64,000 bases of DNA, taken from a virus. Positions 8,168-26,172 of this stretch are shown piece after piece. The notes below the pieces were generated by a model, which was not told the DNA's origin, searched no databases, and saw only the letters and a list, made by a program, of their open reading frames with translations. The position numbers were made by a program, and so were the translations under genes. The first letter of the stretch is position 1; every line of letters starts with the position of its first letter. Location: the IMG/VR virus record IMGVR_UViG_3300031251_000010, positions 11,810-75,809 of that record; one strand, written 5' to 3'.

Positions 8168-8896
8168 TTACCAGGTTTCGGAGGGTTGGCCGATGGCGAT
8201 GTTGGGTTCGGAGTCGCCTCGGCGGATGTTGCAGTTCAGGTGGCTGGGTCGGAAGTTCCGTGGGTCCAGCGCGAGCTCGGGTGCCTCTGACACGGGGATG
8301 GCGTGGTCCACGGAGAAGCTGTCCGGGTGGGGTGCCTTGAGGCTGTAGTCGATGGGGCGCTGGTCCAGCCAGCACACGTCGCCGCGCTCCTGGCACTCCT
8401 TACGGAAGGTGGCCTTGAGCTCCTGGTAGTGGCGGCCGCGTGGGCGTCCCTGTGCGTCCAGGCCAGGGACGTGTTCGGCGGGGGTGCTGCCGGTGGTGGG
8501 GTGCTCCTCGTACCAGCGTTTAATAGCGCCCTGTAGCTGCCATGGGCGTTCGGCGCGGGCTCGTTCCATGACGGTGTCTTGGCCGGGGTCGATCGTGATG
8601 ACCTCGGCGCCGTACGAGCGGTACTTCGTGAGCATCGCGGTACTCGGGGTGGAGTGAATGAGGAACACGTCGTGCTCGCCGACGAGCGTCAGGGCGGTGT
8701 CTATGGCTGCCTGACGGGCGGCCTTGGTGACTGCCTTCACGTGGTCGGGGTGGTCGTGGCGGTGGGGGCTGTCGTCCTGTGGGCTGAGGGTGCAGGCGAT
8801 GGCGTCGTAGTCGATGGTGATGTCACCGGGCCGCGAGTTGTCCCGCACCCATGTGGACTTGCCCGCTGCCGGCGGACCCACCACCACGAACAGCAC
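8168..8896 (-). CDS. P-loop (AAA/kinase-like) domain fused to HNH endonuclease
   Basis: GPPAAGKST Walker A, IDYD; C-terminal CWL...SVDHAIP...NFRPSHLNCNIRRG HNH motif. Confidence 0.85.
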   Translation of the reverse strand: MLFVVVGPPAAGKSTWVRDNSRPGDITIDYDAIACTLSPQDDSPHRHDHPDHVKAVTKAARQAAIDTALTLVGEHDVFLIHSTPSTAMLTKYRSYGAEVITIDPGQDTVMERARAERPWQLQGAIKRWYEEHPTTGSTPAEHVPGLDAQGRPRGRHYQELKATFRKECQERGDVCWLDQRPIDYSLKAPHPDSFSVDHAIPVSEAPELALDPRNFRPSHLNCNIRRGDSEPNIAIGQPSETW

Positions 8897-12032: not shown

Positions 12033-12575
12033 TTACAGCGTGAAATCGCCTCTGGCGTACTGGACTGCCAGCGCGAACACCATGAACTGCTGGAGCAGGA
12101 CGCCTGACTGCTCCTCAGAAAGTAGCGCCGAGATGTCCGGCTGGGTGGCTATATCCCCCGCATATACACGCTCCGCAATCCCCACACCAATGTCGGTCGG
12201 CCCCATCACGAAGCCACCCGAGTTCTGGTTAGTTCGGTCCAGGAAATCCTTTGCCTCTGGAAAAAAGTTATCCGGGAGGCTGACCTGCGGGAAGTGTTGG
12301 GCGAGCGATTTTGCCGCTGTTTCCGAGGAGAACCGACACAAGTGACCCATGGCTTTTACCTGAACAAAGTGAATCAGGTTTTGTTTATCCGAGAAATTGG
12401 ACAGTGAAATGTTGTCCAACGCTTCAGGATTAGTGGCTAGATTCTCGATTTCCTGCTCGATAGCTCCAAATACCTTGTACGGCATGATGATGCTGGAGCC
12501 GTCACCGAAGTTGATGGACATCGCGTTGGAGTTGTCCTCTGGCTCACTCTCGAATGCATCATGGCGCCTATCCAT
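12033..12575 (-). CDS. Hypothetical protein, moron-like (lower GC)
   Basis: 180-aa ORF in an AT-richer segment. Confidence 0.65.
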   Translation of the reverse strand: MDRRHDAFESEPEDNSNAMSINFGDGSSIIMPYKVFGAIEQEIENLATNPEALDNISLSNFSDKQNLIHFVQVKAMGHLCRFSSETAAKSLAQHFPQVSLPDNFFPEAKDFLDRTNQNSGGFVMGPTDIGVGIAERVYAGDIATQPDISALLSEEQSGVLLQQFMVFALAVQYARGDFTL

Positions 12576-14660: not shown

Positions 14661-15050
14661 TCATGGTTTGATCACCGCGATTATGTGCTTTCCGGGCATC
14701 ATGTCGGCCAGCTCGGTCAACGCGTTGATGTGGGTGTGGGCGTCGTCGGGGAGCGGCGTCACGGCCAGCTCCGCGCCATAGGTTCCCTCCAGACCGGCGA
14801 GGTACGCCATGTATGCGTCGGGGTCCGGGAGGTCGGGTACGGCGATGTCGGCGAGCAGCGGATGCTGTTCCAGCAGGGCTGGTTTGCACTCACCTGCGGC
14901 ACGAGGCAACTGATGGGTGAACAGGTTGTCGCCGGTCATGAAGTTGAGGAGTTCGTAGATGTCGCCGATATCGTGCGCGAGCATCCGGTCGGTGGTGACG
15001 GTCAAGATGGCGCCGAGGCCGAACATGCGTGGGGCGGGTGCGGTCATCAC
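14661..15050 (-). CDS. Conserved phage hypothetical protein (paralog of 39476-39853)
   Basis: FGLGAILTVTT...LLNFMTG...QLPRA..C...LLEQHPLL. Confidence 0.7.
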   Translation of the reverse strand: MMTAPAPRMFGLGAILTVTTDRMLAHDIGDIYELLNFMTGDNLFTHQLPRAAGECKPALLEQHPLLADIAVPDLPDPDAYMAYLAGLEGTYGAELAVTPLPDDAHTHINALTELADMMPGKHIIAVIKP

Positions 15051-15823
15051 TTACTCCAATGTCGTTGGTACATATTGACCAGCCACGCGTTGATCCGATC
15101 CCAGTCCGGCCCATCCGGCAGAGACGGGATCGATGCGTGGTACTCAAGGCTCACGGCCAGAGTGTCAAGCCAGCGCTTCACCTCAGGGAGCGGGATCTCG
15201 CCGCGCCGAACGCCCAGCAGTGCATCGCGATGCGCTTGGAGCATGGGTAGGTGCACCCTTCGCTCAGTGAGGAGTTGGATGCCTTGCATACCGAGGCGCA
15301 GTGCGTGATACGCGTATTTGGTGTCGAACCCGTACTGCTCGATGAGTTCGGGCCGGTTGGTGTGCCGGTGGTGAGTGCCCTCCAGGCCCTCCCGCTGAGA
15401 GTTCAAGTAACCAAGGAACTTCCGTCCGGCCTGCTTCGTGACGAACAGCTCTGACGCTGCCTGGAGCTCGGCTCCAAGTTGAGTTTTCACGGTCAGCTCT
15501 TCGTCGGGTATCCAAAGCATCAGCAGCACCGAGGGGTTACCGTCTGCGGCCAGCCGCGTCCACTTCCGCAGGCTATAGATGCACAGATCGAGATCGCCGG
15601 GGCCGGAGCGGGCGCCGTCCGGCTGGGTGCGGTAGATGTACTGCTCGAACTTCTCCAAACCGATTACGGCTTCGGGTGGTTCGATGCAGATGCCCATTTC
15701 GTCGCGGTCGTCGGCGCCGGTCGTGACACCGTGCAGACCGGAGCCGACCTGCCCGCGCAGGATCGTGTTCTCGTCCGCGATAACGCGGTGCCGCTCCGTC
15801 CCGTGGCGCGCTTCGGTACTCAC
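15047..15823 (-). CDS. RlaP/YcgL-like DNA polymerase beta-superfamily nucleotidyltransferase (RNA-repair associated)
   Basis: GSGLHG...DDRDEMG (GS..DxD), DLDLCIYSLRKW, GNPSVL, YGFDTKYAYHALRLG. Confidence 0.85.
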   Translation of the reverse strand: MSTEARHGTERHRVIADENTILRGQVGSGLHGVTTGADDRDEMGICIEPPEAVIGLEKFEQYIYRTQPDGARSGPGDLDLCIYSLRKWTRLAADGNPSVLLMLWIPDEELTVKTQLGAELQAASELFVTKQAGRKFLGYLNSQREGLEGTHHRHTNRPELIEQYGFDTKYAYHALRLGMQGIQLLTERRVHLPMLQAHRDALLGVRRGEIPLPEVKRWLDTLAVSLEYHASIPSLPDGPDWDRINAWLVNMYQRHWSK

Positions 15824-18644: not shown

Positions 18645-18719
18645 GCGCGGGCGTGTGAGTGACCGCCGGGGTTCATCCAGTTGCGAGGTTGGGGTAACCG
18701 ACCGTCGTCCTGCTCGCGC
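18645..18719 (-). ncRNA. Y RNA-like unit 1 (minimal; scaffold only, no tRNA module)
   Basis: GCGCG/CGCGC closing stem; conserved GAGCAGGACG..GUCGGUUA and CCGG..ACACGCCC strands; 25 nt upstream of Ro60. Confidence 0.78.
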
Positions 18720-18734
18720 CAAGGGGGTTCGGGT

Positions 18735-18855
18735 GATGTGGGCGTGTACGTGCTGACCGGGATTTCGCTTTACACCCGCACCGAGGCACGGGCGACAGGG
18801 GTCGAACCTGCATTAACCAATTGAGTGATAACCGACCGAGCGTCCTGCTCACATC
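18735..18855 (-). ncRNA. Y RNA-like unit 2 (T-arm and acceptor-like hairpin; no recognisable D-arm)
   Basis: GAUGUG/CACAUC stem; GCAGG-UUCGACC-CCUGU; CGCCCGUGC-CUCG-GUGCGGGUG. Confidence 0.82.
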
Positions 18856-18890
18856 GAAAAGCTATGGAGTTATTGATGATTCGCGTAGGT

Positions 18891-19032
18891 GGTGTGGGCG
18901 TGTGATTGCTGACCGGGTTTTTAGGTGCTCTACCAAGCTGAGCTATACGGACGCACTACGCGCCCGCAGCTGGATTTGAACCAGCGACCACCCGCTCCAG
19001 ATGCGATAACCGACCTGCGTCCTGCTCACACC
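18891..19032 (-). ncRNA. yrlA: YrlA-class Y RNA unit 3 (permuted class I tRNA mimic)
   Basis: GGUGUG/CACACC stem; T-arm GCUGG-UUCAAAU-CCAGC comes before a closed acceptor hairpin and D-arm UA-GCUC-AGCUUGGUA-GAGC. Confidence 0.9.
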
Positions 19033-19054
19033 GACTACTACGAAGCCTTGGGGG

Positions 19055-19190
19055 TGATGCGGGCGTGTGTGTGCTGACCGGGGTTAAGCGCTCTACCGAC
19101 TGAGCTACAGCTGCCGAAACGGCTGACGGGACTCGAACCCGCGACCTCTCCATTAGCAAGTGGTAACCGACCTGCGTCCTGCTCGCATCA
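19055..19190 (-). ncRNA. yrlA: YrlA-class Y RNA unit 4 (permuted class I tRNA mimic)
   Basis: UGAUGCG/CGCAUCA stem; AGGUC-GCGGG-UUCGAGU-CCCGU; acceptor CAGCCGU-UUCG-GCAGCUG; D-arm UAGCUCAGUCGGUAGAGCG. Confidence 0.9.
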
Positions 19191-19213
19191 TCAAATGTGA
19201 AGTTGTATCCGGG

Positions 19214-19385
19214 GGATGGCGTGGGCGTGTGAGGTGCCTGCCGGCGTTGATCTTGGATCAATGCATTCGGCCGCTCTGCCACGTCCACCTGGTGAGCCCG
19301 AAGCTCTTACCCGGAGGACGGCGGGATTCGAACCCGCGATCTGATGATTTTCAGATAACCGACTCGCGTCCTGCTCACGCCATCC
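19214..19385 (-). ncRNA. Y RNA unit 5 (permuted class II, Leu/Ser-like tRNA mimic)
   Basis: 10-bp GGAUGGCGUG/CACGCCAUCC stem; variable-arm hairpin AUCUGA/UCAGAU; T-arm GCGGG-UUCGAAU-CCCGC; D-arm GUGGCAGAGCGGCCGAAUGC; hairpin UUGA-UCCAAGA-UCAA. Confidence 0.87.
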
Positions 19386-19408
19386 ATGTTTTGTTGACTA
19401 CGCAAAGA

Positions 19409-19439
19409 ACTATACCTCAGTAATGCCTGTTCAGGGCAT
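19409..19439 (-). promoter_or_regulatory. Candidate promoter of the Y-RNA/Ro60 operon with an inverted repeat over the -35 region
   Basis: TATAGT -10 at 19414-19409; ATGCC-N7-GGCAT at 19423-19439; AT-rich upstream. Confidence 0.5.
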
Positions 19440-19558
19440 ATTTTTTGAGTAAATAGCTATTCGCTAGCCTGCGTCTCCTGCACCAGGGGAAGTATGCCGT
19501 CGCGCCCCTCCAGCTGGCTACCGATTATCGGCCAGTCGAAGGTCATGCGCCCTTGGGA

Positions 19559-20107
19559 TTACCGAACAAGCTCCGTGCAGATCGTAAACATGCGGATGGG
19601 GTGTTGGTATCCGACGGGGCACATGTCAGCGGTCCTGGCGCCGAGGACCACCCTGGTCGGCCGGAAGCGACTCACAGCTGTGGCGTCGTCGCATGCCACG
19701 GCCCGTGTGGCGTCATCGGTGATGCTCAGGCAGTTTGAGCTGGTCCAGTTCAGGTCCAGGCATGCGGTCCATTCACCTGCGGCAGTGTTTCGGTAGTAGC
19801 GCCGGTCCACGTCGCGGACACAGTCTTTCGGCTCGATGACACGTTGCACGATCCGGTGGGTAGCGTCTGGAGCGTCGCACTTCGTCAGTTTCATCGCAGC
19901 ATCGTGGCGCGGGCCGGTGATCTTGACGCATGCGCCCACCGGGGCGTCGTCCGCTCCTGCGGCTGTCGTGGTGGCAGGGGTGGGGAACTGTCCGGGGATC
20001 TGCGCGAAGTTGGAGTCGGCTTTCAGTGCTTCGGTGGGGGTCTCGCATCCCGATAGCGATAGCGCTAACACCGCAACACCGACCGCGAGGGCGCTTGCTC
20101 GCCTCAC
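19559..20107 (-). CDS. LppU-like lipoprotein
   Basis: Lipobox LSGC; APVGACVKI...CD.PDA.HRIVQRV..PKDC..DVDRRYY...WTACLDLNW. Confidence 0.8.
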   Translation of the reverse strand: MRRASALAVGVAVLALSLSGCETPTEALKADSNFAQIPGQFPTPATTTAAGADDAPVGACVKITGPRHDAAMKLTKCDAPDATHRIVQRVIEPKDCVRDVDRRYYRNTAAGEWTACLDLNWTSSNCLSITDDATRAVACDDATAVSRFRPTRVVLGARTADMCPVGYQHPIRMFTICTELVR

Positions 20108-20613
20108 TTGGCGTCGGCCCTGAACGTCTCCACACTCATGACTTTCCATTGCCCATTGAGTCGATACATGCTGTACCGGACCCGCGCTCCGGTGTAATAG
20201 TACATATTCTCCGGTTTTGCGTTTTTCTGGTCCTCGAATTCGGTGTAGACGAACGCATCGTAGACGAGATCGCCGCGCGCAAGAATGCCGAAATCGGCAA
20301 TATGCATTGGCCCGTGGTCCAGTATCTCCGACGCCATCTCGCGGACATACCCCGTTTTATAGAACGGGTTGAGGTGTTCTTCGGCTATGCCAGTCGATAG
20401 CGATTCAAGGCGTTTGAGGTCACCAGAATTCAATGCATCGACATATTGCTCGATCACCTGGCGTACTTCTGCATCGTATTTATCCGATGTGGTGCTGGGG
20501 TGCTGCATGCACAGAACATAGGTCAGCAGCGAGGCGATGGCAATCGTGGCTACCCAGGCCACTCCGACCACCGCCGCGCGCCGACTAAATCTCTCGCGAA
20601 GGTAAGTAATCAT
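20104..20613 (-). CDS. Membrane-anchored NTF2-like protein (candidate immunity/accessory protein)
   Basis: N-terminal TM; VRQVIEQYVDALNSGD; C-terminal RLNGQWKV. Confidence 0.7.
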   Translation of the reverse strand: MITYLRERFSRRAAVVGVAWVATIAIASLLTYVLCMQHPSTTSDKYDAEVRQVIEQYVDALNSGDLKRLESLSTGIAEEHLNPFYKTGYVREMASEILDHGPMHIADFGILARGDLVYDAFVYTEFEDQKNAKPENMYYYTGARVRYSMYRLNGQWKVMSVETFRADAK

Positions 20614-21971
20614 GCGGTAGGCCCCTTTTCAAGGCACTGGAGGGTGCTTGAATAGGACGGGACCGCCCAAATTCCCTCAACGAACTCTGTTACCTGGAAT
20701 CCTTCTTTGAACCGGCGAAAATAGTTCGACTGACCGCCGATGGATTGGTTGAGAGCGATATCCATGGGAAGCACTTGGCGGTCATCGACTGCTGTTCCAC
20801 CCCATGTTAGATCCGGCATGTGGCCCGGCGCTTTGCCTTTAAAGGCATCTTCACCAAAGATTGCTATCGCCCTCTTGATATCGTCTTTTCGGCGGGTGTC
20901 CATGCCAGCGGTCGTACGTTTGACTACTATGCCGCCCTTTTCCTCATTCTTCTCAATCAGTTTATTTCCGCCGTTTATATAGTCCTTCATGCCGTCTATC
21001 TGGAATTGTGATGGGTTCTTGACATCCTTGGGGTAGCAGATCGGAACCCTGCCCTTGCAACCCGGCTCCCCGGTCTTGCACTCCTCGGAAAAGTTATCCA
21101 TCCAAGGATCGATGTAGTCATTGCACACCTGCTTGGCAGCCGGGTTAGGTATCAGCTTGCACAGCGGATTCTGCGGCTTACGATCCGGTGGGCAGTCTGT
21201 ACATTCAAGCGGCTCAATCGGCAAGCGGCCGGGAGAACGCTCACCGCCCGGTCCTAGTGTTCCGCCGCCGCCCTTGGGCTTGGGCAGCACCTCGTCGGCC
21301 GCGTCCCCAACCTGCTGAACGACGTCAGCGACCTGCCCGGCAGTCTCGGTCAGCTGGTCCATCTGCTGCGACATCGCCTGGCAGCGCTGCTGCCGCTGCT
21401 GGTCACCCTGGTCCTGCTGGTCCTGCTGGTCCTGCTGGTCTTGCTGCTCGGGCTGGTTCTGCTGCTGACTTTGTTGCGGCGACTGCTGCTGCCCCTGCTG
21501 TGGCGACTGCTGACCCTGCTGAGGTGAACTCTGCTGCGGCGCTTGATAATCAGGGTTCGGCTTACCCGGCCCCTGCGTGTACCCCGGCGCGGTCGAATAA
21601 TCGGGAATCTGGGTACCGTGAGCGGGCTGATCCCAGCCCTGTTGGGGCTGTTGTCCGCCTTGCTGACCTCCGGCTTGTTGCCCGGCCTGCGGCGCGCCGG
21701 AATTGTAAATTGAGATCCCCGAATTCTGGTCCAGGGGCGGTAAGTTGTTGCCGCCCTGGTAATCCGGCATCGACGGCGGTTGCGCGGGCGGTTGGAACTG
21801 CGAGCCCCCGCCGTCGGTCATGCCGCCCGTAGGCCCAGGCGGGCCAGTCGGCTCCGCTCCCACCGTCGCCAACGTGGAGAACCCGCTGCCCGGCGCCGTG
21901 TGCAGAGTCGCGACCTCGACCGTGCCCGCCCCCACTGCCAGGACTGCGACCGCAACTAGTGCCGCACGCAC
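20610..21971 (-). CDS. Secreted protein with Gln-rich linker and C-terminal polymorphic-toxin-like (HNH/Ntox15-like) domain
   Basis: Signal peptide VRAALVAVAVLAVG (GTG 21971, AAGGAAG RBS); Q/P-rich region; GHMPDLTWGG...LNQSIGGQ motif. Confidence 0.7.
   Translation of the reverse strand: MRAALVAVAVLAVGAGTVEVATLHTAPGSGFSTLATVGAEPTGPPGPTGGMTDGGGSQFQPPAQPPSMPDYQGGNNLPPLDQNSGISIYNSGAPQAGQQAGGQQGGQQPQQGWDQPAHGTQIPDYSTAPGYTQGPGKPNPDYQAPQQSSPQQGQQSPQQGQQQSPQQSQQQNQPEQQDQQDQQDQQDQGDQQRQQRCQAMSQQMDQLTETAGQVADVVQQVGDAADEVLPKPKGGGGTLGPGGERSPGRLPIEPLECTDCPPDRKPQNPLCKLIPNPAAKQVCNDYIDPWMDNFSEECKTGEPGCKGRVPICYPKDVKNPSQFQIDGMKDYINGGNKLIEKNEEKGGIVVKRTTAGMDTRRKDDIKRAIAIFGEDAFKGKAPGHMPDLTWGGTAVDDRQVLPMDIALNQSIGGQSNYFRRFKEGFQVTEFVEGIWAVPSYSSTLQCLEKGPTA
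21390..21540. repeat. Low-complexity CAG-rich tandem repeats (QQD/QQS coding), including (TGGTCCTGC)n
   Basis: Visible 9-bp tandem units at about 21409-21445. Confidence 0.7.
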
Positions 21972-22312
21972 CCGCTTCCTTGCGCGTTGAACCTGTGGCT
22001 TGTTTGGCGGGTGTTGCAGTACTCGACACCAGTGTGATTTGCACTGGTTGCCTGGGGAGGGGTTGCCAGAGGCCATGGGGAAGACATTAGAGCACGGTGA
22101 TCTGCGGTAAAAGCTGTTCTAGAAAACAAATCAAGATCTTTGCGGCTGAGCAGTCGGCGACCTGCGGAAAGGTAGCTTTGTGTGTCAGCTCCCGGACAAG
22201 CGGTGCGTTCAATGACTGCTCGCGAGCTGCGGTGCTTATACCGTCGCAACCATCGAACGTCCCAATTGGCTGGTGATAAGCTACGGCAAACAGGCGGCGA
22301 GGGGGGTTGCGG

Positions 22313-25807: not shown

Positions 25808-26172
25808 GGCGGGTCGTTCTCACGGTGGTATCGGGCCCAGGCCAGTTGCCGCCGGGACTCCAGGTGATGTTTCTCGGCGGCGCGGCGCGCGGCGCGTAGG
25901 TCATGGCCTCGGTATAGCTCCGAGGGGACGATGATGGCACCTGGTTCGGACGGGTGGTCGTATTCTGCGATCCAGTGTCGCTCAACAACATTCCGTGGCT
26001 CCCAAGTGCCGCTGAACAGCTTGCTCATCATATGAAGTGTGTACTCCCTGATGCGCAGCCGGAGGCGGTACCTCCCCTCGCTGGCATCGCGGTGGGGCGC
26101 GAACCAGCAGACCCCCTTGTCCCAACGGTCATATTGGCCGCGTTGCCAATCCAGGCTTCCGTCGATCATCAC
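25801..26172 (-). CDS. Hypothetical phage protein
   Basis: Coupled ORF. Confidence 0.55.
   Translation of the reverse strand: MMIDGSLDWQRGQYDRWDKGVCWFAPHRDASEGRYRLRLRIREYTLHMMSKLFSGTWEPRNVVERHWIAEYDHPSEPGAIIVPSELYRGHDLRAARRAAEKHHLESRRQLAWARYHRENDPPC

Follow-up and report, generated by a model that had tools for sequence, protein, structure and literature searches.

Y RNAs are regarded as adaptors between Ro60 and other proteins. Mycobacterium smegmatis has two, YrlA and YrlB, encoded upstream of the rsr gene; both are cut from a common precursor and accumulate as discrete RNAs bound to Rsr. In vivo, RNase P cleaves YrlA and CCA is added to it, which the authors tied to its 7-bp acceptor stem, and YrlB has a possible T arm (Chen 2014, PMC4201824). 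YrlA of Salmonella Typhimurium (RF02553; crystal structure 6CU1) joins a Ro60-binding stem to a tRNA-like module, an effector-binding domain, which is arranged in the order T arm, closed acceptor, D arm and has conserved T and D loops (Wang et al. 2018, 10.1101/312249); the Salmonella Y RNAs are located downstream of rsr. The Ro60 protein of Thermus phage phiLo forms a complex with two Y-like RNAs, encoded directly upstream of its gene, and with the PNPase of the host, which the phage is suggested to hijack; these RNAs, Yrl1 and Yrl2, were found through a CGAA motif, and tRNA-like modules are not reported for them (PMC12135203). The Yrn1/Yrn2 locus of Deinococcus radiodurans also has several (four) small RNAs upstream of rsr, with a Y RNA that tethers Rsr to PNPase, but its docking helix is nearer to the metazoan one, its T/D elements are oriented otherwise, and its origin is independent according to the authors (PMC4201824).

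A temperate mycobacteriophage-like virus with a complete genome of 75.8 kb, a 64-kb stretch of which is called the window here, carries a real, expanded variant of the two-RNA system of M. smegmatis. Its five units (U1 to U5 in the order of the minus strand, Table 1), separated by spacers of 23, 22, 35 and 15 nt, belong by sequence and pairing to the YrlA/YrlB class of the known bacterial Y RNA family that is found beside rsr. As in M. smegmatis, they immediately precede rsr and share its strand, and the 3' docking sequence ...ACACGCCC-ACAUC-ACC is common to both systems; U2 matches the YrlA probe sequences, and U4 resembles YrlB in its T arm. The M. smegmatis locus has two RNAs, whereas this one has five, the additions being U1 (tRNA-Ser type), U3 (YrlA type) and U5 (minimal), and is borne by a phage. 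The Salmonella RNA shares with these units the combination of Ro60-binding stem and tRNA-like module, the order of the arms and the conserved loops, but U2 and U3 differ from it in a separate anticodon-like hairpin, whose loop has 7-8 nt, and score half the gathering threshold of the Rfam model. Compared with phiLo, another phage with Y-like RNAs directly upstream of a Ro60 gene, the array has five RNAs, no literal CGAA motif, and four units with tRNA parts.

Table 1. Features of the Y RNA array and its surroundings, in coordinates of the 64-kb window.
Feature	Position	Strand	Score or remark
U1, 172 nt, tRNA-Ser-like module	19214..19385	minus	R1 112.5 bits
U1 parts	hairpin A 19355-19340; T arm 19337-19321; extended closed acceptor hairpin 19320-19282; class II D arm 19279-19263; hairpin B 19261-19247	minus	
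U2, 136 nt, canonical YrlA	19055..19190	minus	R1 136.8 bits; Rfam YrlA 36.2 bits over full model
U2 parts	anticodon-like hairpin 19163-19148; T arm 19142-19126; acceptor 19125-19108; D arm 19105-19090	minus	
U3, 142 nt, second YrlA-type unit	18891..19032	minus	R1 138.1 bits; Rfam YrlA 36.8 bits
U3 parts	anticodon-like arm 19005-18991; T arm 18985-18969; closed acceptor 18968-18946; D arm 18943-18927	minus	
U4, 121 nt, T arm and acceptor-like hairpin, no D arm	18735..18855	minus	R1 107.4 bits
U4 parts	T arm 18811-18795; 9-bp closed acceptor-like hairpin 18794-18773	minus	
U5, 75 nt, minimal Y RNA (docking stem and 24-nt loop, no tRNA-like part)	18645..18719	minus	R1 68.7 bits
Putative upstream control region	19406..19439	minus	17-nt hairpin/palindrome 19439-19423, then GGTATAGTT
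rsr ribosome-binding site AAGGAG	18631-18626	minus	14 nt past U5
rsr start codon GTG	18619-18617	minus	
rsr / Ro60, 566 aa	16919..18619	minus	Pfam TROVE PF05731 5.8e-50; vWA_Ro60 PF25045 4.9e-57
RlaP-family Pol-beta nucleotidyltransferase	15047..15823	minus	PF10127 2.2e-33; PHROG 388; 1.1 kb downstream of rsr

Within the 64-kb window, GAGCAGGACG, GTCGGTTA and ACACGCCC are each present in exactly five copies in the array, on the minus strand, and in one or two copies outside it, on either strand. Matches to the combined 5' pattern in the whole 75.8-kb genome number five, all on the reverse strand, versus none for a reversed control pattern. Under a covariance model made from U1-U5 (R1), the five units reach 69-138 bits (E-values of 1e-14 to 1e-32), and the model has no other match in the genome, a weak plus-strand hit at 12088-12177 (E = 0.3) being regarded as chance. 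The array ends 25 nt upstream of the GTG codon of rsr, on the same strand and within the distance of about 4 kb from rsr that is characteristic of the family. The Ro60 protein is canonical, with a TROVE domain, the HEAT-repeat ring, and a C-terminal vWA domain, belongs to PHROG 850 (RNA-binding protein) and is 67% identical to Rsr of M. smegmatis. A first-pass annotation of this DNA had described five minus-strand units with spacers of 15-35 nt as YrlA-class Y RNAs that adjoin the Ro60 gene and form its leader. The coordinates of the units hold, with R1 scores and motif counts above chance; their class is supported by matches to the M. smegmatis probe sequences, by R1 and by the canonical Ro60 gene; and the shared strand, the lack of a terminator-like site there and the position of the ribosome-binding site agree with a leader.

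The 5' and 3' ends of all five units pair into a conserved helix, which is the putative Ro60-docking module shared by U1-U5. The terminal helix extends into GAGC/GCCC, with an A.C mismatch in every unit. When 109 units from 31 loci were compared, 96.4% of the cells of the scaffold stem were paired (shuffles gave 76.6%, and slid partners 31-45%), and compensatory double changes were found at 20 of the 21 pairs. The earlier observation that the terminal stems differ in sequence and pair perfectly is correct for each of the five units, and the covariation that it had pointed out extends to homologues. As for folding energy, U1 is more stable than its shuffles (z = -4.2) and U3 marginally so (z = -1.9); for U2, U4 and U5, the minimum-energy folds show no gain in stability over shuffles.

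The Rfam model of YrlA (RF02553) has no match at its gathering score (threshold 69 bits); U2 and U3 reach 36-37 bits, and U1, U4 and U5 have no match to it even below threshold. The probe sequences of M. smegmatis YrlA (PMC4201824) recur in U2 and U4. The two loci found with the Rsr proteins closest to that of M. smegmatis (86% and 83% identity) served as stand-ins for it: each has exactly two R1 units, matching the published M. smegmatis count, and R1 scores their first units at 98 and 81 bits. The literal motif GNCGAAN0-1G (Chen 2014) is absent from the 5' scaffold of all five units; the sequences nearest to it, GACGCAGG (U2 and U3), GACGCGAG (U1) and GACGACGG (U5), differ at one or both of the A positions, and the 5' scaffold of U4 has no sequence near it.

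Mapping of the arms of U1-U5 confirms that each unit has its own insert, as the first-pass annotation had noticed (none, T arm plus acceptor, or a full mimic), and that the inserts of U1, U2 and U3 are circularly permuted into the order that defines YrlA: T arm, closed acceptor stem, D arm. What had been called a class II mimic is U1, and its description can be sharpened to tRNA-Ser-like. The 5' acceptor strand and D arm of U1 agree with Mycobacterium tRNA-Ser(UGA) at 26 of 27 bases, with one base inserted; its three top-scoring tRNA matches are all Ser; and it also resembles tRNA-Ser(UGA) in the T arm, the 3' acceptor strand and the long arm beside the T arm. Unlike the mycobacterial tRNA, U1 is permuted in arm order, has a closed acceptor, and is grafted onto the putative Ro60-docking stem. 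Its D arm is of the class II type (3-bp stem, 11-nt loop), its acceptor is an 8-bp stem with a U.U mismatch, closed at the end by a 23-nt extension, and the hairpin in the anticodon position has a loop of 3 nt. The sequences bordering the T and D arms of U1 can pair in trans over only 4 bp, and the two local hairpins were retained instead.

U2 and U3 had been described as two class I mimics; they are tRNA-like as proposed, and they also have an anticodon-like arm, in composite form. The docking stem exits a complete anticodon-like arm at a nick, between positions 28 and 29. The pairs of this composite arm are 27-28 with 42-43 and 29-31 with 39-41, whereas the published reading takes the hairpin for a variable arm. 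The composite anticodon stem is in register in 27 of 57 units, above shifted controls, with all five pairs formed in U3, and the anticodon-like loops have U at position 33 (32 of 36) and a purine at position 37 (33 of 36). The loop of U3 consists of 7 nt (AUCUGGA), and its closed acceptor has 9 bp; the acceptor stem of U2 has 7 bp and is closed by UUCG. With respect to isoacceptor identity, the best tRNA matches of U2 and U3 are non-specific. ARAGORN predicts no tRNA genes, the tRNA model RF00005 scores 28.9 and 23.8 bits (cut-off 29) in alignments that cross unit borders or mismatch heavily, and the units do not have the standard-order cloverleaf with free acceptor ends that characterises a tRNA.

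Next to almost all related Ro60 genes, R1 detects arrays of this kind, and the linkage of units to rsr spans phyla. Comparison of the arrays contradicts the initial impression that the five-unit form is special to one phage: it is the conserved state of the clade, found in five of five close relatives, and M. abscessus prophages have 6-7 units. Chromosomal mycobacterial loci have 2-4 units, as opposed to 5-7 in arrays of phages and prophages. The closest payloads to those of U2, U3, U4 and U5 are found, in the same order, in the arrays of relatives or M. abscessus prophages: the U2 payload is 85-90% identical to units of loci L109, L108, L100 and L111, that of U3 is closest to L100_U3 (79%), and that of U4 shares 90-91% identity with L001_U5 and L100_U6. 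Arrays vary in their first position and in the extra internal units. Payloads resembling tRNA-Ser are present in the window array, L108, L111 and L128, and a payload of L109 resembles tRNA-Glu (27 of a possible 30). In most arrays the last unit before rsr is minimal, 64-79 nt long, and ends about 20-50 nt before the gene; in three loci (L035, L036 and L052) the Y RNAs are downstream of rsr.

The putative control region upstream of U1 contains a palindrome, which has counterparts at the same site in relatives (alignment A5), CTATACC-GC-GGTATAG in L001 and L100 and CTGTACC-CC-GGTACAG in L108; a possible -10 hexamer, TATAGT (19414-19409), is also within it. A scan for the sigma-70 consensus found no promoter, and a scan for terminators found one site only, on the plus strand, and none on the strand of the array and rsr. 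The RlaP-family nucleotidyltransferase encoded downstream is possibly a partner of rsr, albeit not a required one: RlaP adjoins rsr in five distant loci (L016, L025, L044, L075 and L145) and was not found in the examined flanks of M. abscessus prophages. The genome has no RtcB-family RNA ligase.

The region is probably a polycistronic array of five YrlA/YrlB-class Y RNA genes that constitutes the 5' leader of the phage rsr gene. The structure of the array and its place in the family are shown by the analysis, and the steps that follow, from transcription to the choice of partners, are inferred. By analogy with the YrlA/YrlB precursor of M. smegmatis, a single transcript would start about 20-30 nt upstream of U1 and be cut into five RNAs of about 75-172 nt and an rsr mRNA with a short leader. 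The ends of each RNA would close one bipartite helix, in which a terminal stem with GAGC/GCCC and an asymmetric loop (AGGAC / A-N3-4-ACAC) are followed by GGUCGG/CCGGUC and then by the invariant UUA-Y-C, together the presumed Ro60-docking module. Since a Ro60 accommodates a single Y RNA at a time, a mixed population of particles is the most likely product of the array: instead of one Ro60 loaded with several RNAs, as had been proposed initially, the cell would receive a mixture of five kinds of Ro60 particle, with the distal module selecting the partner of each. U2 and U3 would present the complete shape of a tRNA (acceptor hairpin, D arm, T arm and anticodon-like arm), U1 a tRNA-Ser-like shape with a long extra arm, and U4 only a T arm and acceptor; U5 would present nothing, and may merely gate the Ro60 ring. 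Going by characterised systems, the modules might recruit or occupy exoribonucleases and tRNA-handling proteins of the host (PNPase, RNase P, the CCA-adding enzyme, TruB/Dus), which would tune RNA decay or repair to the needs of the phage.

It is quite improbable that the array is mainly a cis-acting leader, with Ro60 binding its own mRNA (above all at U5) and autoregulating translation or transcript stability, and with the free RNAs as by-products. The distance from U5 to the ribosome-binding site is 14 nt and to the start codon 25 nt, and the fixed position of a minimal last unit, some 20-50 nt before rsr in most related loci, is as expected of a regulatory contact; but the upstream Y RNAs of M. 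smegmatis are discrete and Rsr-bound (PMC4201824), the leader position is not required since Y RNAs are downstream of rsr in L035, L036, L052 and Salmonella, and conserved tRNA-like payloads of 80-110 nt would be superfluous for autoregulation. Cis-regulatory and free Y RNA roles can coexist. It is highly unlikely that RNase P cleavage, trimming and CCA addition convert the units into two-piece tRNA analogues, which would be substrates or inhibitors of aminoacyl-tRNA synthetases (U1 of SerRS) and not passive adaptors. The acceptor strands, discriminator G and long extra arm of tRNA-Ser are identity features for SerRS, and U1 retains the tRNA-Ser acceptor strands, a G in the discriminator position and a long extra arm by the T arm. 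[quoted passage not shown]

That the units are decoys or baits showing tRNA identities to host tRNA-targeting toxins or defence nucleases, or else guides for the repair of cleaved tRNA with RlaP, is conjectural and unlikely. This role would fit the larger size of phage arrays (5-7 units, versus 2-4 in mycobacterial chromosomes), the isoacceptor-specific character of some payloads (tRNA-Ser in the window array, L108, L111 and L128; tRNA-Glu in L109), the tRNA register of the anticodon-like loops, the presence of RlaP in the same gene string and its linkage to rsr in five distant loci, and the suggestion that Ro with a tRNA-like partner is a phage RNA-repair platform (PMC7824862). It is opposed by the lack of an RtcB-family RNA ligase in the genome, by the failure to find RlaP in the examined flanks of the M. 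abscessus prophages with 6-7 units, by the occurrence of the same kinds of unit at chromosomal loci, and by the fact that no matching toxin target is known. The units might also, conceivably, be tethers for different effectors. That the region is a degenerate or reshuffled set of tRNA genes, or what is left of an attachment site, and does not function as RNA is barely credible; this reading was rejected because it is contradicted by the covariation of the scaffold. In its favour are the tRNA-like T and D arms, the annotation of one relative's unit as tRNA-Thr (GenBank MW584167) and sub-threshold matches to the Rfam tRNA model; however, ARAGORN finds no tRNA and the model stays under its cut-off, every unit has a docking stem foreign to tRNA with compensatory changes across 31 loci, the arm order is uniformly permuted, and the linkage to rsr holds across phyla.

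The polycistronic Y RNA array apparently goes beyond published descriptions in its size, in the tRNA-Ser copy of U1 and in the nicked anticodon-like arm, with the reservation that reviews or the supplement of Chen 2014 may list large arrays. Published searches and Rfam detect at most two of the five units, and phage arrays are two to three times the size of chromosomal mycobacterial ones. Because a constant handle bears a natural series of payloads (none, T arm only, full tRNA shape, tRNA-Ser copy), the adaptor idea is directly testable. A rather doubtful extension is that phage and prophage arrays are panels of isoacceptor-specific tRNA mimics (of tRNA-Ser here, tRNA-Glu-like and tRNA-Trp-like in relatives) on one Ro60 handle, which would direct Ro60 and nucleases to host tRNA-binding proteins, or divert those proteins, as an adaptor or decoy set in phage-host conflict. 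Candidate targets of such a panel would be synthetases, modification enzymes and tRNA-cleaving toxins, and the set would be evolvable. If the payloads are identity-specific, the array would be an RNA-based instrument of phage-host conflict of a new kind; otherwise it amounts to a well-documented expansion of a known family.

For related prophages, the GenBank entries carry no annotation over 1.4 kb, or give one unit as a tRNA. No RNA run on record contains the stretch. Contigs from four sequencing runs, of a type guessed to be RNA, span the array and diverge at 19454; they belong to a relative about 95% identical, and are unable to show transcription, ends or strand. A wastewater run yielded deep, short contigs over the T arms, which are most likely genuine tRNAs of other organisms.

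The five-unit array leading to the Ro60 gene (rsr) is a real feature, an expanded and diversified variant of a known system. Its units (U1 to U5, numbered 5' to 3' toward rsr on the minus strand) measure 172, 136, 142, 121 and 75 nt and are separated by spacers of 23, 22, 35 and 15 nt, too short to leave room for promoters. Every unit starts on a short stem strand of variable sequence, after which come GAGCAGGACG and GTCGGTTA, 3-4 variable bases apart. On the 3' side, a short variable stretch lies between CCGG and ACACGCCC, and the complementary stem strand comes last (alignment A1). The three scaffold motifs occur five times each inside the array on the minus strand and one or two times each elsewhere in the window, and the combined 5' pattern has five matches in the whole genome versus none for a reversed control, confirming the array at the place where the first-pass annotation had located it. 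The genome (75.8 kb, complete, with direct repeats at its termini) contains no further Y RNA unit outside the array, no tRNA gene and no RtcB; its nearest named relatives are the Mycobacterium abscessus prophages prophiGD43A-5 and prophiT37-1 (~77% DNA identity across the locus). The 3' end of U5 lies 14 nt upstream of AAGGAG and 25 nt upstream of the GTG start codon of rsr, the 566-aa product of which has TROVE and Ro60-type vWA domains and is 67% identical to the Rsr of M. smegmatis.

The paired ends of the units form a shared docking stem, drawn by hand on the five units: the terminal stem extends into GAGC/GCCC, where every unit has an A.C mismatch. Next come an asymmetric internal loop in which AGGAC faces A-N3-4-ACAC, then a 2-bp helix and a small purine-rich mismatch, and last a 6-bp inner helix (GGUCGG/CCGGUC). 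A covariance model built on A1 with this structure (R1), a check proposed in the first-pass annotation, recovers all five window units (69-138 bits), and R1 also finds units beside almost every Ro60 locus in a set of 54 viral and 80 bacterial ones gathered with a Ro60 alignment. In an alignment of 109 units drawn from 31 loci, pairing holds in 96.4% of cells, versus 76.6% when shuffled and 31-45% with slid partners, and compensatory changes are found in 20 of 21 pairs (399 cells); fitting of this alignment to R1 biases it toward the structure, and the margin over the controls is large nonetheless. The terminal stems vary freely from unit to unit, and the covariation originally noted within the array holds in this larger set. 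The most conserved single-stranded letters are U-U-A-Y-C, right after the inner helix (fixed letters in 106-109 of 109 units). Minimum-energy folds give little further support: U1 beats shuffled sequences (z -4.2), U3 does so weakly (z -1.9), and U2, U4 and U5 do not. At the second pair of GAGC/GCCC the 109 units have G-C (57), A.C (27), A-U (20) or G.U (3), suggesting that some lineages tolerate or prefer A.C. The 3' flanks are C-rich (C at +2 in 72 and at +3 in 55 of 109 units), the terminal stem being followed in the window by ACC, CCC or UACC, which may serve as a processing signal or form a single-stranded tail that is conserved.

U2 aligns over its full length to the Rfam YrlA model (RF02553; 36.2 bits) and U3 through its tRNA-like core (36.8 bits), but neither reaches the gathering score of 69, so that this check gave alignment below threshold. 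Complements of the probes published for M. smegmatis YrlA (Chen et al. 2014, PMC4201824) recur almost exactly, …ACACGCCCACATCACC… in U4 and U2, and TTACCACTTCTAATGGA… in U2. At the two loci with Rsr closest to that of M. smegmatis, R1 scores 98 and 81 bits and finds exactly two units each, of 134 and ~105 nt, in agreement with the published pair of YrlA and YrlB, two Rsr-bound RNAs processed out of a single precursor that lies upstream of rsr (Chen et al. 2014, PMC4201824). Together, the Rfam alignment, the probe matches and these R1 hits place the five units, as judged by sequence, in the bacterial Y RNA family, consistent with the YrlA-class identity first assigned to them. U2 matches the YrlA probe sequences, U4 (a T arm and closed acceptor hairpin without a D arm) resembles YrlB, and U5 is a minimal Y RNA.

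The payloads (distal, mostly tRNA-like parts) of U2 and U3 start with a small hairpin and a linker of 5 nt (AGGUC or UGGUC). A T arm comes next, followed by a closed acceptor stem that has 7 bp and a UUCG loop in U2 and 9 bp in U3; UA, a D arm and a short return strand rich in A and U complete the payload. The small hairpin of YrlA-type RNAs is named the variable arm ('V') in the literature covered. In a register test that took positions 39-43 as the five bases before the variable loop, 27-28 as the two bases after position 26, and 29-31 as the three bases before the 7-nt loop, all five composite anticodon pairs form in 27 of the 57 units having both arms, with many pair types (CCA/UGG, CGC/GCG, CUC/GAG, UCA/UGA and others; CU/AG, CC/GG, CG/CG and others). 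The outer two pairs are complete in register in 40 of 57 units, versus 8-24 with shifted partners, and the inner three in 29, versus 2-19; loop position 2 is U in 32 of 36 units and loop position 6 a purine in 33 of 36. U3 fits the register exactly and U2 fits it with an 8-nt loop. Given this pairing, the docking stem seems to exit the tRNA-like body at an anticodon-like arm that is complete but nicked between positions 28 and 29. Neither U2 nor U3 is like a specific isoacceptor among the 45 tRNAs of a Mycobacterium genome. GenBank records of relatives leave the array region blank or call one unit tRNA-Thr: the tRNA-Thr(tgt) of prophiGD43A-5 is the 5' half of the second Y RNA unit, its 'anticodon' being the loop CUUGUAA of the anticodon-like hairpin, and the other five units of this prophage and the entire prophiT37-1 array are without annotation.

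U1 has a plan unlike that of U2 and U3: a 5-bp hairpin abuts the T arm where a long variable arm would sit; the acceptor hairpin carries an extension; and the D arm (3-bp stem, 11-nt loop) is followed by a 6-bp hairpin with a 3-nt loop. Against all 45 tRNAs of the same genome, the 5' acceptor strand and D arm of U1 share 26 of 27 bases with tRNA-Ser(UGA), plus a one-base insertion, and the top three matches are all tRNA-Ser (scores 23, 19 and 15; next best 12, median 7). The T arm and 3' acceptor strand likewise align with tRNA-Ser, and the class II mimic recognized at first reading is thereby borne out. The tRNA-Ser-type D arm also occurs in units of three other Ro60 loci (L108, L111 and L128), and the 5' half of the third unit of L109 scores 27 of a possible 30 with tRNA-Glu(CUC). 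Several units of related arrays are nearest to tRNA-Trp, by a margin of 4-5. In near-identical relatives (L093, L094, L096 and L012), U1 differs only in its acceptor-like hairpin, by compensatory changes and small indels (alignment A4). In the U2 lineage the acceptor hairpin differs in every array, the T and D arms being fixed.

Coordinates of the array, its neighbours and features of compared Ro60 loci
Feature	Sequence	Coordinates	Strand
Array, U1-U5	window	19385-18645	minus
Extended acceptor hairpin of U1	window	19282-19320	
Second GAGC/GCCC pair (example)	window	19375 with 19224	
3' tails (examples)	window	18890-18888; 18734-18732	
RlaP-family nucleotidyltransferase	window	15047-15823	minus
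Upstream palindrome	window	19406-19439	minus
Upstream palindrome	L001 (prophiGD43A-5)	~8620-8640	
Upstream palindrome	L108	~2815-2835	
Terminator-like hairpin	window	19423-19439	plus
Secreted-protein and lipoprotein cassette	window	19559-22076	
BrnT-like toxin and antitoxin	L001	9131-9564	opposite to array
BrnT-like toxin and antitoxin	L002	9149-9591	opposite to array
Annotated tRNA-Thr(tgt)	L001 (MW584167.1)	8374-8452 (26001-26079)	
Isoacceptor-like unit	L109	3222-3362	
Isoacceptor-like unit	L109	2915-3040	
Isoacceptor-like unit	L128	2587-2725	
Isoacceptor-like unit	L115	3183-3307	

Arrays upstream of rsr were compared across mycobacterial prophages, as had been suggested. The same five units recur in each of the five close relatives, whose Ro60 is 92-96% identical; the M. 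abscessus prophage clade has six, or seven in three records. The closest payload matches of U2, U3, U4 and U5 (79-91% identity) are in the M. abscessus prophage arrays, with their order kept, the first position there being an unrelated non-tRNA unit and extra tRNA-like units lying mid-array. Four or more units (E ≤ 0.001) are present in 28 of 54 viral loci, many of them near-duplicates, and five in several independent lineages (L108, L115 and L122); counts at 11 chromosomal loci from the same bacterial family range from two to four. Because R1 was trained on the window phage, unit counts in distant loci are lower bounds. Typically, long tRNA-like units come first and a 64-79 nt minimal unit adjoins rsr. 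R1 matches downstream of rsr in myxobacterial and Chloroflexi-type loci (L035, L036, L037, L039, L052, L069, L083 and L091; up to five in L052) indicate that the position of the array relative to rsr varies by lineage, as in Salmonella, where it is also downstream.

Anatomy, covariation and the precedent of M. smegmatis all suggest a single transcript spanning the array and rsr, and no terminator-like site was found on the array strand between units or ahead of rsr. Such a transcript would be processed into five Ro60-binding RNAs and the rsr message, each RNA forming a distinct Ro60 particle with a partner chosen by the distal module. The tRNA-like module is the effector-binding domain (10.1101/312249); PNPase is one partner of Ro60 and Y RNA, and a phage Ro60 and two Y-like RNAs assemble with host PNPase (PMC12135203). 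Apart from such particles, U5 may act in cis at the ribosome-binding site, or the units may turn into two-piece tRNA analogues ending in CCA. They may also act as decoys or in repair jointly with RlaP; a repair platform has been proposed (PMC7824862). The genes that follow rsr on the same strand encode DUF6283, a small protein, a nucleotidyltransferase of the RlaP family and DUF7736. RlaP is encoded close to rsr in this phage clade and at five distant loci of actinobacteria or phages (L016, L025, L044, L075 and L145; 45-51% identity), but was not found in the available flanks of the M. abscessus prophage arrays.

The Y RNA family, its link to Ro60, permuted tRNA mimicry and occurrence in mycobacteriophages are already published. 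Chen et al. 2014 (PMC4201824) listed 355 YrlA candidates in 254 bacteria and 22 phages, slightly more than one per genome, and stated that further Y RNAs elude bioinformatic detection. The literature covered holds no description of five- to seven-unit arrays, of one constant handle bearing graded payloads, of tRNA-Ser-type units or of a nicked anticodon arm in Y RNAs. The main value of the locus is as a natural test set for the function of Y RNA payloads.

In several clades a palindrome (CTATACC-GC-GGTATAG, CTGTACC-CC-GGTACAG) lies 25-40 nt upstream of the first unit, overlapping a possible -10 hexamer, and may be an operator for a regulator of the Y RNA-rsr transcript. The window version is partly kept (TTACTGAGGTATAG), with a hairpin ATGCCCTGAACAGGCAT ahead of it. 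Read on the plus strand, that hairpin is followed by ATTTTTTGAG and scores as an intrinsic terminator, although no convincing plus-strand gene ends there. The upstream neighbour of the array in the window is a secreted-protein and lipoprotein cassette; in two M. abscessus prophage loci (L001 and L002), a BrnT-like toxin and antitoxin pair is encoded on the opposite strand just past the upstream end of the array.
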